A stretch of 64,000 nucleotides of DNA from a virus, in IMG/VR virus record IMGVR_UViG_3300045988_110372, positions 1 through 64,000 of that record. One strand, given 5' to 3'. Position numbers and translations under genes: made by a program. Every line of letters begins with the position of its first letter. The first letter of the stretch is position 1. The notes under the pieces were generated by a model, which worked only from the letters and a program-made list of their open reading frames with translations, did no database searches and was not told the origin of the DNA. This document shows positions 8,555 to 63,755 of the stretch, in pieces.

Positions 8555-8628
8555 GGGCAAAATGGGTGAGTGATTTAGCCAACACTCTGCAAAAGTGTTT
8601 TACAGCGGTTTGAATCCGCTTTTGCCCT
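8555..8628 (+). tRNA. tRNA-Cys (anticodon GCA), slightly non-canonical
   Basis: Hand-folded cloverleaf:
- Acceptor stem GGGCAAA/TTTGCCC (8555-61 with 8621-27).
- Anticodon stem ACACT/AGTGT with loop CTGCAAA, giving U33 and GCA at 8589-91.
- 5-nt variable loop.
- T stem AGCGG/CCGCT with loop TTTGAAT.
- D stem with one G-G mismatch and a D loop lacking GG.
- No encoded CCA. Confidence 0.6.
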
Positions 8629-58054: not shown

Positions 58055-58927
58055 TCAAGCATAAGCAGCCGTTAAAGGAGTTTCCATGATGTCAACTTCT
58101 TTAGTCTTAGCATTGAAAGTTTGTCTTTTCTTGTGATTGAAAATGATATTCCTGAAAGACTGGGTAATACTTCTGTTAGTTATCTTGTATTGATTCGGAA
58201 CAACTATATAGCCGAAGCCACGTTTTCTGTCATATACAATATTAACGTGTTCAAGTCCGCTTTCACGGATAGAACCTTCGCATACAGAAGAAAGGACTAA
58301 CTGTGTATATCCTTGTTTGATATTAATCATGTTGTTTGCTTGAAGTTTCAGAAGTTGTCTGCGTGCAGTAGATTTACATACACCACCGATATTCTTCATT
58401 TTGTTTAATGTCAGCGCATCTTTGGTTGTCAACAAGATATTGTTTTTGATTTCTCTACAAGAGTAAAACTTATCGCTTCTTTCAGTTGCGTTGATTGCAT
58501 GAAGATAAATCATGTCGTGTACATACTTCTCTATATCAAGTAAAGACCAGTCTTTGTCAATCACAAGTCTTACGACATACATAGACCAAATTTTCTTTCC
58601 GAACTTGTTATCTGATACGATAGTTTTGTTCTTGAAAGTTTTGGCTACAAATGCGTCAGTATACTTGTTGTACTTGAAATATGTATTGTTGTTTTTTACA
58701 GCGTTTATAATCTTTCTTGCTCTTACCTGACCTACACCGAATTTATCACGGATATTTCTTACGGAAGTATTTCGGAACATAGAATCACCGCTATGGGCTT
58801 TTACAAACAAAGCAATAGCTACCGAGAACAAGGTATTTTTATCCTTGCACTTGGTAAGAATGGAAGTAGGCAGATTGATAATTCTCATCTGCATATCTTC
58901 TTGTCGTATGTTCACTTTGTTTGCCAT
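58055..58927 (-). CDS. hypothetical protein, possible DNA-binding / replication-initiation factor (290 aa)
   Basis: It is the first gene downstream of the non-coding RNA-like locus. It has HTH-like segments 'VRNIRDKFGVGQVRARKIINAV' and 'GGVCKSTARRQLLKLQ'. The function is an inference. Confidence 0.5.
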   Translation of the reverse strand: MANKVNIRQEDMQMRIINLPTSILTKCKDKNTLFSVAIALFVKAHSGDSMFRNTSVRNIRDKFGVGQVRARKIINAVKNNNTYFKYNKYTDAFVAKTFKNKTIVSDNKFGKKIWSMYVVRLVIDKDWSLLDIEKYVHDMIYLHAINATERSDKFYSCREIKNNILLTTKDALTLNKMKNIGGVCKSTARRQLLKLQANNMINIKQGYTQLVLSSVCEGSIRESGLEHVNIVYDRKRGFGYIVVPNQYKITNRSITQSFRNIIFNHKKRQTFNAKTKEVDIMETPLTAAYA

Positions 58928-59306
58928 AATAAAACTTTTAGTATATAAAACAAGAAAACCTTATCAGAATCGCTATCTGACAAGGCTCTTGTTTATCTAT
59001 GAAGCCGTATAGATAGCATCAATTTTTGATGTAGGCAACCTATCTATACTCAACTTATTTACTATGTTTTTGATATGAAGTTTTCAAAGCTTTGCGTATC
59101 ACAAGCTGCCTATTCTTCTGATAACACTGCGAATATAATACATAAATTTCAAATATCCAAATCTATTAACTTTATTTAACTTTGTGGGAATTAATCACCA
59201 AATTGGCGACATTCCCGTAGGCAACATTGATTTGCTGTTTAAGCATCTTCTTACTGCCTTTTCAATTAAATAAAGAACTCTTTTCATTGTTATTTGTTTT
59301 TGGTTA

Positions 59307-59429
59307 GTGCATCGGCAGGATTCGATACCTGCAACCGCTTCCGCACTTCTGCGCTGAAACCTTTTTTGTTTAATGTGTGGTTCGGCTACCACATTACAGT
59401 TTTTTTGCGTCTACTTCCGCCACAATGCA
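59307..59429 (-). ncRNA. tRNA-like element 2 (acceptor, D and T arms around a roughly 75-nt insert)
   Basis: Read on the minus strand:
- Acceptor stem TGCATTG/CGATGCA with a G-U pair.
- D-like stem GCG/CGC.
- T-like arm GCAGG-TATCGAAT-CCTGC, whose loop is 8 nt.
- Internal hairpin AATGTGGT-AGCCGA-ACCACATT.
No anticodon arm can be recognised. Confidence 0.3.
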
Positions 59430-59546
59430 AGTTCCTCTCATCATCCACCACCGAGAGGGAGTGCCTACTGACGATTAGGATAAGCCAACTTTGTGCTTAC
59501 GTGTTTCGTTCCGCTTTTATTACGTAATTATTGTGCGGCTATTATG

Positions 59547-59614
59547 TCCCCTTGGATGAACTCGAATCACCTTTTTGCGCTTTTCTTCGTTTTACCATGT
59601 TAAACTACAAGGGG
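59547..59614 (-). ncRNA. tRNA-like element 1 (68 nt; canonical acceptor, D and T arms, no anticodon stem)
   Basis: Read on the minus strand:
- Acceptor stem CCCCTTG/CAAGGGG.
- D arm GTTT-AACATGGTA-AAAC.
- T arm GGTGA-TTCGAGT-TCATC, with a canonical T-loop and one G-U pair.
- The 16 nt 'AAGAAAAGCGCAAAAA' that occupy the anticodon/variable-arm position cannot form a stem. Confidence 0.4.
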
Positions 59615-59687
59615 ATAAAGCATCTATTCTCACGAACCAATGCTTTCAATCAAAAAAAATTGATTGTGAACCTATTATTATTCTTTG

Positions 59688-59695
59688 CAAATATA
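59688..59695 (-). promoter_or_regulatory. candidate -7 promoter box upstream of the tRNA-like locus
   Basis: The minus strand reads 'TATATTTG', immediately after the stop of 59701-59991. It would drive transcription into 59680-59300. Taken alone, the motif is weak evidence. Confidence 0.3.
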
Positions 59696-59700
59696 CAAAC

Positions 59701-59991
59701 TTATTTCATATCTGCAAAATTTTCTATCATTTTTTTACAAGTTTCTACTTTATCACGCAAATTCTTGTCGTATTTCAGGCGAAATTCCATATTTATAACA
59801 TGATGTCTTATGTTGGAATGAACAAATCCGTAAATCTCGCCTAGCTTTATGTATTTCAGGTCTGTATATTGTCTTAAAAGATAAAACAGTGTAGCACGTG
59901 CTTCTATGTATTCCATCTTTTTAGTGTTCCTAAATAAGTCCTCTATTCCGAAAACTTTAGAAACTACATTTTCATAACATTTAAGTTTCAT
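59701..59991 (-). CDS. small DnaA-domain-IV-like HTH protein (96 aa)
   Basis: 'EYIEARATLFYLLRQYTDLKYIKLGEIYGFVHSNIRHHV' is similar in layout to 42802-43107. Confidence 0.45.
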   Translation of the reverse strand: MKLKCYENVVSKVFGIEDLFRNTKKMEYIEARATLFYLLRQYTDLKYIKLGEIYGFVHSNIRHHVINMEFRLKYDKNLRDKVETCKKMIENFADMK

Positions 59992-62789: not shown

Positions 62790-63755
62790 TTATTTCATTT
62801 CACTGATTAATGCATTTCCACAAGTAATTCTATCACTATCTTCTTCTTTTGAAGGAACAAATACGATGACATCCCATCCTTCTTCTAGCAGCGGCTGTTC
62901 GAATTTGCGGTACACATCATAATCAGCATATCCAGTTACTTCAAAACCATTTTCAATAGCTGAATTTGTTTCATGAATTGGGGTAATTTTTACAATAAAC
63001 TTATTCTTGTCAAATAACTCAGAGAGTTTCTTTGCATCAAGAATAGTCTGTGCAGTTACAGGAAAATTCAAAGTATATTTTCTACCTTTGGGCATTGGTA
63101 AATCTTCAGCTAATTCTGATATTTCAGTTAAAGATAAACTTTTTCTATCAAATAACTGATTTCTTTGTTCGTCACCAGTTGAATTGATAGAGAACTGAAG
63201 TCCTGCTTCACCATTGTAAAAATCATTTTTTATTTCGCACCAAGTAAGAATATACTGTTTCAATTTCTTATTTGCTTTTGGTAGCATAGTAGATACTACT
63301 GGATGAACAGTCTTTGCTTTTAATCCACAAGTCTTTACAAGTTCTTTCAGCATCATAGAAAAAGCCAGCACATTTTCATTCCAAGTTGGTTCTCCCATTC
63401 TTGCAAAGTGAACATTAAATCGTTCAGTTTCTCTTACATCTTCATTTTTGATAATCATTTTAATTTGATAAGCAAGTTCATTTACTGAAACATTACCAAA
63501 GAAGCCAAATTTAGGAACATCACAGAATTTACATTTCATCGGGCAACCTTTCTGTGTAGAGATAGTAGCAACCCATTTATTACGCAAATCTACTTCTGTG
63601 TTAGCTACTCCGTTGATTTCTTTTGTCAGACCGAGAAAGTCAGCCTTGATGTTATTTTCTTTTCCGTAATCACCTACTGTAAGAAATTCAAGTTTCTTTT
63701 CGGTATCTACATAAATCTTTCCTGTGTGAGTTTTAATTGTTTTCATATTATACAT
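62790..63755 (-). CDS. radical SAM enzyme, RlmN/Cfr-like
   Basis: 'ISTQKGCPMKCKFCDVPKFGFFGNVSVNELAYQI' has the CxxxCxxC cluster in an RlmN-like context. It also has 'ARMGEPTWN', 'KITPIHET' and a C-terminal 'DRITCGNAL', comparable to RlmN 'DIDAACGQL'. Confidence 0.7.
   Translation of the reverse strand: MYNMKTIKTHTGKIYVDTEKKLEFLTVGDYGKENNIKADFLGLTKEINGVANTEVDLRNKWVATISTQKGCPMKCKFCDVPKFGFFGNVSVNELAYQIKMIIKNEDVRETERFNVHFARMGEPTWNENVLAFSMMLKELVKTCGLKAKTVHPVVSTMLPKANKKLKQYILTWCEIKNDFYNGEAGLQFSINSTGDEQRNQLFDRKSLSLTEISELAEDLPMPKGRKYTLNFPVTAQTILDAKKLSELFDKNKFIVKITPIHETNSAIENGFEVTGYADYDVYRKFEQPLLEEGWDVIVFVPSKEEDSDRITCGNALISEMK

Follow-up and report, generated by a model that had tools for sequence, protein, structure and literature searches.

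tRNA genes are among the commonest genes of cellular type in phages, and their roles, whether in codon supply, in recoding or in evading anticodon nucleases, are debated. A tRNA-like fold may also be used as a handle for processing or stability, as it is in the tRNA-miRNA units of murid herpesvirus 68, in mascRNA and in the engineered "tRNA scaffolds". In phages P1 and P7 the antisense RNA C4, a regulator whose variable loops set its specificity, is released by RNase P from a precursor that resembles a tRNA. tmRNA (SsrA), whose 5' and 3' ends pair as a 7-bp acceptor beside a T arm, is processed like a tRNA and carries a long insert in the place of the anticodon arm, together with a G3.U70 pair for alanylation, a tag frame and pseudoknots, and usually has no true D stem. 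In phage T4, "species 1" and "species 2" (rnaC and rnaD) are stable non-decoding RNAs at the end of the tRNA cluster, and in rnaC a canonical T arm (CCGGG-UUCGAAU-CCCGG) is followed by a strand that pairs with its own 5' end. YrlA, a bacterial and phage Y RNA, combines tRNA-like D and T arms with a Ro60-binding module, and in M. smegmatis it is cleaved by RNase P and receives CCA (PMC4201824). Finally, theta ribozymes, which are HDV-like, lie beside tRNAs in Bacteroidota gut phages, often with tRNA-Leu (PMC10879173).

The window analysed here is a stretch of 64 kb (64,000 nt) of viral DNA, whose minus strand carries, between 59718 and 58945 and in this order, a promoter, two tRNA-shaped modules without an anticodon arm (elements 1 and 2) and a terminator (Table 1). 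We consider the chances about evenly balanced that the RNA genes of this locus, tRNA-derived and non-decoding, form a small operon, an assessment that applies to the whole reading of the tRNA body as a handle for cargo. The initial annotation had reported a region with no convincing ORF and a raised GC content, and this agrees with the absence of minus-strand ORFs of at least 80 aa from the ORF list between 58928 and 59700 and with a GC content of 0.44-0.475 at 59300-59600 vs 0.28-0.35 in the flanks; the modules that it had described are likewise all present in the sequence. The Bacteroides promoter consensus is TTTG-N19-21-TAnnTTTG, and the minus-strand box proposed as the promoter does have a TTTG 19 nt upstream; a promoter belonging to the locus itself is supported. 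A sigma-70-type scan also flags 59718-59690, and the promoter motif block GTTTGTATATTTGC is retained in the relatives L002, L003, L004, L288 and L289. The leader hairpin (MFE z-score of -3.7, with an equally good fold in 1 of 200 shuffles) precedes the first module in every sister phage, and is also found without modules in two unrelated metagenome contigs (L290 and L291). At the other end, the candidate 30-codon ORF has the frame and stop of an ORF at 59195..59392 and is found in L002-L004 with 1-2 substitutions, too few for a coding test, and the intrinsic terminator is probably the end of the locus transcript. Rfam also gives a weak trpB-motif-like match here (36.6 bits vs GA 59), in which this terminator makes up the 3' half.

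Table 1. Features of the locus and of its two tRNA-shaped elements, in window coordinates.
Feature	Position	Strand	Description or basis
Bacteroidetes-type promoter	59688..59718	minus	-33 TTTG 59718-59715, 19-nt spacer, -7 TATATTTG 59695-59688; read from sequence
Leader hairpin, AAAGCAU-UGGUUCGUGAGAAUAG-AUGCUUU	59617..59646	minus	5' of the first module
Element 1, 68-nt tRNA-shaped RNA without anticodon arm	59547..59614	minus	sequence, descriptor scan
Element 1, acceptor CCCCUUG/CAAGGGG	59614-59608 / 59554-59548	minus	7 Watson-Crick pairs
Element 1, D arm GUUU-AACAUGGUA-AAAC	59605-59589	minus	
Element 1, linker	59588-59572	minus	G26 + 16 unpaired A-rich nt
Element 1, T arm GGUGA-UUCGAGU-UCAUC	59571-59555	minus	
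Element 1, discriminator	59547	minus	A
117-nt spacer between elements 1 and 2	59430..59546	minus	common to sister phages carrying element A
Element 2, 123-nt tRNA-Leu-type scaffold + 74-nt insert	59307..59429	minus	family membership, covariation
Element 2, acceptor UGCAUUG/CGAUGCA	59429-59423 / 59314-59308	minus	7/7 pairs, one U.G
Element 2, D arm GCG-GAAGUAGA-CGC	59420-59407	minus	
Element 2, insert (including a 5+3-bp hairpin with CA bulge)	59406-59333	minus	74 nt
Element 2, hairpin 1 of the insert	59396-59371	minus	
Element 2, hairpin 2 of the insert	59360-59337	minus	stops 4 nt 5' of T arm (variable-arm position)
Element 2, T arm GCAGG-UAUCGAAU-CCUGC	59332-59315	minus	stem 5/5 pairs, 8-nt loop
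Element 2, discriminator	59307	minus	C
30-codon ORF (MKRVLYLIEKAVRRCLNSKSMLPTGMSPIW), candidate	59195..59287	minus	starts 20 nt 3' of element 2
Intrinsic terminator	58945..58989	minus	terminator scan: 14-bp stem + U tract

Both elements keep the 7-bp acceptor, the D arm and the 5-bp T arm with T loop of a canonical tRNA, and in both of them the anticodon arm (5-bp stem, 7-nt loop, U33) is absent at the right distance from the D arm; in element 2, A-tracts stand where the two strands of the anticodon stem would be. A descriptor scan (7-bp acceptor, D arm, 5-bp T arm with T-loop motif, any insert size) of both strands of the whole window returned exactly three objects, namely a true tRNA-Cys (8555-8627), element 1 and element 2. 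With a strict T loop, 0.03 matches are expected per block-shuffled window (0.17 with a relaxed one), which makes element 1 statistically unlikely as a chance product. ARAGORN and Rfam are blind to both elements: the former called no tRNA at the locus in standard mode or with lowered thresholds without introns, and the latter gave no match on the elements at gathering thresholds, nor any within 59300-59620 at E<=10, a setting also applied to a plain-stem copy of the insert and to a canonical-loop family member. The view that these are tRNA-derived RNAs and not standard tRNAs is supported. When the window and 20 family loci were searched at gathering thresholds with Rfam 15, only the generic tRNA model matched, and only in family members with canonical D and T loops; sister member L274, for instance, reaches 36.6 bits (RF00005, GA 29) with its anticodon arm skipped, and element 2 of the window stays below detection by that model. 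The family is undescribed in Rfam 15 and in the literature searchable by full text, raw sequence strings included.

Judging from its relatives in other phages, element 2 is a member of a large phage RNA family that keeps the upper half of a tRNA and in which other RNA replaces the decoding arm, so that these RNAs should be unable to read codons. The family is defined by a D arm, UGGCGGAA(N1-4)UAGACGC, immediately after the 7-nt acceptor strand, by a 7-bp acceptor closure immediately after a 5-bp T arm, with compensatory changes, and by a variable insert that replaces the anticodon arm and whose main helix stops 2-4 nt 5' of the T arm; at the D arm, element 2 reads UG GCGGAAGUAGACGC. At least 119 IMG/VR contigs match the D-arm pattern of element 2, and a perfect 7-bp acceptor right after a perfect 5-bp T arm is present in 55 of the 107 distinct matches listed, where shuffles expect 0.75; the same closure test in bacterial genomes gave 7 of 118 vs 2.25 expected, among the matches listed. 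In the scaffold alignment, 99.2% of the cells pair, a figure that holds partly by construction because the members were selected for closure (a bias addressed by the shuffle control and by the bacterial-genome comparison); none of 500 shuffles reaches it, and slid partners give 36-41%. Furthermore, 10 of the 15 pairs vary on both sides, all four Watson-Crick pairs occur at each variable acceptor position, and the covariation score is 0.696 vs 0.155 for shuffles. The lengths of the D and T loops also change together: the D loop GGAA-UG-UAGA goes with a 7-nt T loop in 11/11 members, and for the other D-loop variants the partner is mostly the UAUCGAAU type of 8 nt. Where the anticodon arm would stand, only 5 of 78 members (among the matches listed) have so much as a weak 5-bp/7-nt hairpin, and the insert ranges from 20 to about 190 nt in well-closed members, the smallest members being 68-69 nt long with essentially no cargo. 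One scaffold carries several insert clusters (8 for AGUCAGG, 7 for AGCAAGG and 4 for GAGCGCG, among the matches listed), and a single array, L005, holds at least five such scaffolds.

As for their surroundings, about 20% of the members (among the matches listed) lie within phage tRNA arrays, at 2-9 nt from their neighbours and on the strand of the neighbouring tRNAs in nearly every case, a spacing that lends indirect support to a tRNA-like processing. This shared strand, together with G.U pairs that are kept family-wide, supports the minus strand of our locus as the sense strand, as had been suspected. A survey of the ORFs around 78 family and 23 element-2 members (+/-3 to 5 kb) found no conserved protein neighbour. 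The tentative link drawn earlier to an RlmN/Cfr-like neighbour is not supported; in that protein only the radical-SAM core of the models was matched, with 43 bits vs a cut-off of 290, and Pfam Radical_SAM gave 24 bits, below its cut-off. BLAST of 50,697 GenBank phage records yielded no identifiable closed family member. In the same search, T-arm matches in Vibrio phages fell at an unannotated long-stem structure. Taken as a whole, the family RNAs probably use the tRNA-processing machinery of the cell for another purpose.

The 74-nt insert of element 2 follows a motif, AAAAACUGUAAUG-NGG...CCN-CAC-R-UUAAA, an A-tract and ...CGCAGAAGUGCGGAAGC, whose three blocks are all matched in the window and are common to at least 20 phage contigs, in different scaffolds. 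It occurs in at least four acceptor scaffolds and also in plain-stem scaffolds with no tRNA body (L267, L287 and L325), and GenBank BLAST found it, again in a plain stem, in an unannotated gut-virome record (MT835839). The insert sequence is conserved outside the search anchors (...CACRUUAAA..., CGCAGAAGUGCGGAAGC), and hairpin 1 combines compensatory changes with a hypervariable loop of 8-13 nt. Its sequence is better conserved than that of the scaffold, and it is found to move from one scaffold to another, so that it is not neutral filler. No reading frame of the insert is conserved across the element-2 family, because the loop lengths vary by 1-2 nt.

Element 1 represents the smallest form of the architecture, with an unstructured 17-nt linker as its insert, and its D arm differs from the family pattern of element 2. 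No homolog was found by an exact T-arm/acceptor search of IMG/VR or by a D-arm...T-loop pattern search of JGI metagenomes, and a search anchored on the leader returned element-A-type loci and the two unrelated leader-only loci, none with an element 1 homolog. Due to this, covariation supports the stems of the element 2 family, strongly so in the acceptor and T stems, and gives no support to those of element 1. Behind the same leader, the slot is occupied by element 1 in the window, by element A (a different module of the same design) in L003, L004, L288 and L289, and by a D-arm-fused hybrid in L002; as judged from these sister phages, the modules are swapped as separate cassettes. L003 and L004 carry a near-identical copy of the 117-nt spacer, which L002 has lost by deletion; the spacer has no Rfam match, is not significantly structured (z = -1.2) and folds no better than shuffles on either strand. 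This, together with the exchange of the modules, leaves the earlier suggestion that they form part of a larger structured RNA without support.

How does this architecture compare with the described systems? Its likeness to tmRNA lies in the paired ends, in the long insert at the place of the anticodon arm and, presumably, in a tRNA-like processing. The family differs from tmRNA in its true Leu-type D arm, in lacking both G3.U70 and a conserved frame, and in inserts that can be as small as 20 nt. A tmRNA identity was rejected for the window, where position 3-70 is C-G in both elements, the frame is not conserved and ARAGORN -m is negative; the tmRNA calls that ARAGORN made beside members L053 and L089 are ordinary ssrA genes. 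With YrlA, the family shares the general concept of a non-decoding RNA that joins a tRNA-like elbow to a second functional module, and some hairpin-1 loops of the element-2 family even contain the Ro60-contact words GNCGAA or GUCCGA (GCCGAA in the window). However, YrlA ends in its Ro-binding stem and its "acceptor" is a closed hairpin, whereas the family ends in the acceptor stem, and the Ro60-contact word sits in a hypervariable loop and is missing in many members. A YrlA or Y RNA identity is not borne out in the window: the ends are in the acceptor stem, GCCGAA is confined to the hairpin 1 loop, a Pfam scan of eight neighbouring window proteins found no TROVE, the product of the rsr gene beside which YrlA lies, and Rfam no Y RNA at the locus. 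The T4 species are alike as stable RNAs that do not decode, but they have no Leu-type D arm, the terminal stem of rnaC has 5/7 pairs, no sequence similarity to the family was seen by eye, and the family BLAST queries matched no T4 record.

The engineered scaffolds use the anticodon arm as the insertion site, as the family does, although the handle systems mentioned above are eukaryotic or artificial, and in the herpesvirus units and mascRNA the cargo lies outside the tRNA-like fold and not inside it. Regarding C4, no Rfam match was obtained at the locus, and an antisense regulator of the same phage was rejected, since only chance-level 12-13-mers were found in the 64-kb window. The hairpin-1 loop has an 8+4-nt match at 58216, inside a 290-aa ORF; 8-mer matches arise by chance about once per window, and L002, with the same hairpin-1 loop, has no 8+4-nt match in the downstream 2.8 kb. 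The theta ribozymes offer a similar ecological setting and a non-standard maturation of phage tRNA genes without encoded CCA, but each of them follows a complete tRNA on its 3' side and removes itself by self-cleavage. A theta or other HDV-like ribozyme, which would show a nested double pseudoknot beginning no more than 5 nt from a tRNA 3' end, was rejected here, with no Rfam match at E<=10 in 58800-59800 and no such fold in the spacer or the inserts; the sequence 3' of either discriminator has no P1 complement. Pistol, hairpin and hammerhead ribozymes and the L11-binding rRNA region were dropped as well, having by eye only short words in common with the insert.

In the reading to which we assign about even chances, the locus produces non-decoding tRNA-derived RNAs that are cut out by RNase P and 3' processing, the tRNA body being a handle for maturation and stability and the insert the effector. 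The modules would keep just what the maturation machinery reads, that is, a 5-bp T arm on which a 7-bp acceptor is stacked, together with a D arm that would form the elbow by contact between its loop and the T loop. Transcription would begin at the promoter at 59695, RNase P would cleave at the 5' border of each acceptor stem, and 3' trimming (for example by RNase Z) with CCA addition would complete the other end, giving two stable, codon-blind RNAs, one with a length of about 68 nt and the other of about 122 nt. Recognition of element 2 by RNase P is plausible only, given its non-canonical elbow (a D loop without GG and an 8-nt T loop) and its escape from the Rfam tRNA model. In element 2 the tRNA body would serve processing and stability and the insert would be the working part, a portable two-hairpin motif that most likely binds a host factor and not a phage protein; element 1 is nearly free of cargo, and its function may be the tRNA body itself or the transcript cleavage that it directs. 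Since the smallest family members are almost cargo-free too, a pure handle for cargo is insufficient, and the tRNA body must matter.

Another explanation, also among the roles first proposed and regarded by us as unlikely, is a decoy or sponge, in which the tRNA bodies titrate a host factor reading the acceptor, T arm or elbow (for instance a tRNA-targeting anti-phage toxin or nuclease, or a tRNA-modifying or -sensing enzyme) and, having no anticodon arm, leave translation undisturbed. The bait in element 2 would be CUGUAAU, which is single-stranded and has the sequence of a tRNA-Tyr-type anticodon loop, and it is the CUGUAA at the anticodon-loop position that leads ARAGORN, with relaxed thresholds and introns, to call element 2 a tRNA-Tyr(GUA). 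The nearly cargo-free forms that keep a tRNA body, the several copies per genome and the lack of a phage protein partner in the surveyed +/-3 to 5 kb, suggestive of a partner from the host, all agree with it. However, no candidate defence or enzyme target was identified, and CUGUAAU is not universal when another block is the anchor (CUGCAAU in L301 and L306, CUG--GU in L318); besides, a simple sponge needs no diverse long structured inserts, and the element 2 insert is also found in plain stems. The modules might instead punctuate transcripts, as tRNAs do in mitochondria and mascRNA does at the 3' end of MALAT1, being RNase P (and RNase Z) cut signals whose released tRNA-like RNA is a by-product. 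Conservation limited to the parts that RNase P needs, the freely varying insert length and a position close behind genes (about 16 of 78 members, among the matches listed, start -2 to +11 nt from the stop codon of an upstream same-strand ORF, and some gaps are very short, that around the L031 member leaving 5 nt upstream and 49 nt downstream) are what this would produce. Yet the element 2 insert is more conserved than its scaffold and mobile, the locus in the window, with a promoter and a terminator to itself, does not lie inside a long operon, and members in pure tRNA arrays separate only tRNAs, all of which makes punctuation quite unlikely.

The remaining explanations have less in their favour. 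A charged Leu-type body with A73 could deliver an amino acid outside the ribosome or, like tmRNA, enter it with a helper, given that LeuRS, as AlaRS and SerRS, does not read the anticodon. In canonical-loop members a 22-nt stretch of the D arm is identical to E. coli tRNA-Leu, whose D arm was the sole match in an E. coli search; 36 of 78 members (among the matches listed) have A as discriminator, as do most of those in the element-2 family that are built on the AGUCAGG scaffold, and a few members encode ACCA. Such a carrier is nonetheless very unlikely, as the discriminator in the window is C for element 2 and A for element 1, element 2 has no G18G19, G3.U70 is not a rule in any member, the insert frame is not conserved, the tmRNA search is negative, and the true phage tRNA-Leu genes of the same contigs have other acceptor stems. 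The tRNA ancestry is obvious enough to suggest a degenerate pseudogene, as the initial annotation did, or an intron-containing tRNA spliced to a working one, and ARAGORN, with introns allowed and an 80% threshold, reads element 2 as a tRNA-Tyr(GUA) with a 31-nt intron. Neutral decay would nevertheless affect all arms equally, whereas only the anticodon arm is missing here, and in dozens of phages compensatory changes preserve the acceptor, T and D stems of element 2. The intron-containing tRNA-Tyr was rejected: its "anticodon stem", which would have to close the loop CUGUAAA, sets AAAAA against GGUUU in the window (three A-U and two A.G), the family consensus pairs only 2/5 there, and the smallest members leave nothing to splice; bacteria are not known to have a tRNA splicing endonuclease, and 31 nt is far below the size of a self-splicing group I intron. 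Either form of this idea is highly improbable. Lastly, a plus-strand small RNA might run from a TAACTTTG box at 59177-84 to a hairpin and T7 run at 59375-59406, or a small plus-strand ORF might be the functional unit; the terminator scan does mark 59375-59394 with its T run, and plus-strand ORFs of 32-90 aa are present. The hairpin with T7 exists as first described and is the reverse complement of element 2 hairpin 1 and its upstream A-tract, a block common to the whole element-2 family; the T7 run is the complement of an A-tract present in every aligned member, a constancy partly by construction because the tract was in the search anchor. On the plus strand, moreover, the family-conserved G.U pairs turn into A.C mismatches, the fold is no better than shuffles, the adjacency of acceptor and T arm and the T-loop motif lose their meaning, and array members share the strand of the tRNAs, so that this explanation is scarcely credible.

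The reading of the tRNA body as handle and the insert as effector might be extended to a large and so far unrecognised class of "tRNA-bodied" phage effector RNAs, in which a class II (Leu-type)-derived scaffold, matured by the host, would carry interchangeable modules in place of the anticodon arm, the element 2 module, whose junction strands are invariant and whose loop is hypervariable, being a programmable binder and the cargo-less forms, such as element 1, mimics of the tRNA body. This is a tentative proposal that we hold to be rather doubtful. If it were true, the binder might, for instance, inhibit a tRNA-targeting host defence or act as its decoy, or it might regulate through a specificity loop, much as C4 does.

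In any case, standard annotation has missed tRNA-derived genes of uncultivated phages on at least about 100 contigs, which come from varied samples; the genes kept everything but decoding, and some phages carry several copies with different inserts. The 74-nt motif is new among RNA motifs and well defined; it is conserved and portable and lends itself to biochemistry. If the bodies or the inserts are decoys, they would amount to an RNA-based counter-defence. If, on the other hand, the tRNA body is a natural handle, the family would be nature's own version of the engineered tRNA scaffold and would offer a rule for finding phage small RNAs, which is to look inside tRNA-like shells.

Every long ORF around the locus lies on the minus strand, as judged by an ORF scan, and the non-coding stretch is bounded by the stop of a 96-aa ORF (59701), whose product resembles the C-terminal helix-turn-helix domain of DnaA (30.5 bits, slightly below the cut-off), and by the start of a 290-aa ORF (58927). 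Its GC content is 0.44-0.475, versus approximately 0.30-0.35 in the surroundings. Element 1 (a tRNA-shaped module without anticodon arm) and element 2 (a tRNA-Leu-type scaffold with a 74-nt insert) both have, as seen in the sequence, the anatomy that the initial annotation had described. A descriptor scan of the whole window returned a true tRNA-Cys and these two elements, and nothing else, with 0.03-0.17 such matches expected by chance; neither element was detected by ARAGORN or Rfam. The boxes upstream match the consensus of Bacteroidetes-type promoters. The leader hairpin is a conserved motif (stem GCAU/AUGC, 16-nt loop UGGUUCGNGAGAAUAG) that is likewise present, with no tRNA-like module after it, in two unrelated contigs from metagenomes (L290 47-70, L291 761-784). 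The 30-codon ORF is retained in the related contigs L002-L004, where variation is too slight to judge translation. Directly upstream of the 290-aa ORF, a hairpin pair (58947-59050, minus), its second member being the terminator, resembles the Rfam "trpB ncRNA motif" below threshold (36.6 bits, GA 59, E=0.003), probably a generic hairpin-plus-terminator likeness.

Coordinates of the features of the non-coding locus
Feature	Position	Strand	Basis or remark
Presumed Bacteroidetes-type promoter	TTTG 59718-59715, 19-nt spacer, TATATTTG 59695-59688	minus	sequence reading
Leader hairpin	59646-59617	minus	z = -3.7
Element 1 (68 nt)	59614-59547	minus	sequence reading
Spacer, 117 nt	between elements 1 and 2	minus	sequence reading
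Element 2 (123 nt)	59429-59307	minus	sequence reading
30-codon ORF (MKRVLYLIEKAVRRCLNSKSMLPTGMSPIW)	59287-59195	minus	begins 20 nt past element 2
Pair of hairpins, of which the downstream one is an intrinsic terminator	terminator 58989-58955	minus	terminator and Rfam scans

No match to the window was found among GenBank phages, and close relatives are present among IMG/VR and metagenome contigs. In four related contigs (L003, L004, L288 and L289), element 1 is replaced, behind the same promoter and leader, by an element A with the layout GGUAUCG-UG-GCGGAAUAUAGACGC, a 167-nt insert, GCAGG-UGUGAAC-CCUGC and CGAUACC, followed by the same spacer and then element 2. L002 carries a hybrid module (2829-2951, minus) in which the 5' acceptor strand of element A and its D arm run straight into the insert of element 2 and that element's 3' half, everything between having been deleted. 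The first acceptor pair of this hybrid is a G.A mismatch, and the fusion reads as evidence of recombination between tandem modules at the common D arm. The swaps and this fusion indicate, therefore, that modules of one design (7-bp acceptor, D arm, T arm and no anticodon arm) replace one another in the position behind the leader. Element 1, known from a single sequence, is one of them.

The D arm of elements 2 and A (GUGGCGGAA-N1-2-UAGACGC) is a shortened bacterial tRNA-Leu D arm, whose canonical form, found in sister members, is 100% identical to E. coli tRNA-Leu across 22 nt. Searching IMG/VR with this pattern matched at least 119 contigs, and in 55 of the 107 distinct matches listed a perfect 5-bp T arm is followed at once by the closing strand of a perfect 7-bp acceptor (shuffles expect 0.75). 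In bacterial genomes, where the matches are mostly due to chance and lie inside coding sequence, 7/118 close, with 2.25 expected. Acceptor sequences are highly diverse, with all four Watson-Crick pairs at each variable position, and the scaffold alignment shows changes on both sides in 10 of 15 pairs, values reached by none of 500 shuffles. The shuffle and bacterial-genome comparisons matter as controls because the alignment was itself selected for closure. All family sets derive from exact-match anchors, which makes the family size a lower bound and invariance within the anchors a matter of construction. D-loop length varies in step with T-loop length across the family, which argues for a preserved elbow, and an anticodon-arm-like hairpin, even a weak one, is present in only 5 of 78 members. 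Well-closed members bear 20 to ~190 nt between the D and T arms, the smallest measuring 68-69 nt in total; a member with canonical loops (L274) reaches 36.6 bits against the Rfam tRNA model, the 17-nt anticodon arm being replaced by 68 nt.

The element-2 insert was searched for twice, independently, with its 5' block (...AAAAACUGUAAUG-NGG, an 8-13-nt loop, CCN-CAC-R-UUAAA-Y-AAAAAA...) and with its 3' block (...CA-R-CGCAGAAGUGCGGAAGC) as anchor, and both searches converged on one 74-nt module, present in 20 or more phage contigs. It is housed in four or more distinct acceptor scaffolds, some with canonical D loops and others with a hairpin inserted there; this extra hairpin measures 20-30 nt in five contigs (L244, L280, L279, L284 and L261), and the scaffold therefore accepts insertions at a second site. 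The module is also found in three plain long-stem scaffolds without tRNA features (L267, L325 and GenBank MT835839), and an Rfam search of a plain-stem copy gave no match. Hairpin 1 of the insert shows compensatory changes (GAGG/CCUC, GUGG/CCAC, CAGG/CCUG, UAGU/ACUG) around a hypervariable loop, and G.U pairs, kept in 16 of 18 sequences, settle the strand. Support for the outer stem of hairpin 2 is weak (A.A mismatches in 14/18); sequence is conserved there, not pairing.

Roughly a fifth of the members are embedded in tRNA arrays of phages, where gaps of 2-9 nt separate them from their neighbours and the strand is almost always shared. The array of L005 (524-3472, minus) contains at least five RNAs with an identical AGUCAGG/CCUGACU acceptor, a T arm that is identical or almost so, and five different inserts; one of these RNAs (2001-2095) resembles an almost normal tRNA-Leu(CAA) whose anticodon loop has 8 nt. 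Acceptor stems differ in the true tRNA-Leu genes of contigs that carry family members, and therefore the scaffold constitutes a separate lineage. The closest analogues of element 1 are tRNA-like genes of non-Leu type whose anticodon arm is stunted or deleted (L117, 59 nt; L099 and L070, 68 nt each). Other variants were observed as well. A Leu-type member (L057 1422-1511, minus) has an anticodon-arm-like hairpin with a GUUUAAA loop, which would give it a UUA anticodon and perhaps make it an ochre suppressor. Several phage tRNAs are given 6-nt anticodon loops by ARAGORN ("tRNA-???", two-base anticodons: L014 4392-4462, L035 1866-1937, L256, L269 and L271), and one is given a four-base anticodon (L255). 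Nested second T-arm-like hairpins (UUCGANU loops) occur in inserts of L048 (2720-2866), L077, L090, L093, L095, L117 and L045, and within that of L048 ARAGORN calls an entire tRNA-Val. Ordinary tmRNA genes (L053 1144-1462, L089 1447-1766) lie ~130-300 nt from family members; in L089, the tmRNA 5' acceptor strand GGGCGCG equals that of the adjacent element, which may mark a prophage end at ssrA. Finally, cultured Vibrio phages bear an unannotated structure (L286, phage 1.012.O, MG592397, 16.7-16.9 kb) in which a canonical T arm (ACAGG-UUCGAAU-CCUGU) is closed by a ~17-bp stem instead of a 7-bp acceptor, preceded by GCGGAAGGUU, which resembles the 3' end of the element-2 insert.

Regarding other identities, the elements are not tmRNA: G3.U70 is absent, the frame is not conserved and ARAGORN is negative. 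YrlA has the opposite topology, its GNCGAA-like word is confined here to a variable loop, and a scan of eight neighbours gave no TROVE protein. Theta or HDV-like ribozymes and C4 RNA gave no match, and the intron-containing tRNA-Tyr called by ARAGORN needs introns and an 80% threshold, and leaves the anticodon stem unpaired. Degenerate pseudogenes, one of the roles initially proposed, are at odds with a loss limited to one arm and with the covariation of the remaining arms. Transcription from the plus strand, also considered at that stage on account of a hairpin with a T run, would turn the conserved G.U pairs into A.C mismatches, and the supposed terminator is the complement of the A-tract and hairpin 1 of element 2. 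Nor does the RlmN/Cfr-like neighbour hold: its likeness is limited to the radical-SAM core (43 bits versus a cut-off of 290), the gene encoding a 321-aa radical-SAM protein (62790-63755, minus; phrog_24834, unknown function), and the speculative link to it is not supported, as the gene is not conserved beside family members within the ±3 to 5 kb examined.

Taken on sequence grounds, the elements are very probably genuine, selected, non-decoding tRNA-derived RNAs. What they conserve is what RNase P, the CCA-adding enzyme and the enzymes of 3' processing recognise, namely the elbow and the stack of acceptor and T arm; what decoding requires has been lost. Module spacing in arrays is tRNA-like, and scaffold and insert assort independently. 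The primary transcript would be cleaved at the acceptor borders, releasing stable tRNA-shaped RNAs, and in element 2 the insert would be the effector, with the tRNA body serving as a handle for maturation and stability, a mechanism to which we give an even chance. Since no phage protein co-varies with this insert, its partner is probably a component of the host. In the near-empty members, element 1 included, the function would have to be the body itself or the cleavage event, which keeps decoy and punctuation models alive. Rfam 15 holds no family matching anticodon-arm-less tRNA-Leu-type phage scaffolds or the 74-nt motif, and the accessible literature describes neither; a 2023 catalogue of phage structured RNAs lists unspecified "tRNA or tRNA-like" candidates and nothing more. 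The nearest known systems are the tRNA-like domain of tmRNA, YrlA and the T4 stable RNAs rnaC and rnaD, along with RNase-P-matured C4 RNA, viral tRNA-linked small RNAs and engineered tRNA scaffolds, and the family therefore falls among the tRNA-like non-coding RNAs.
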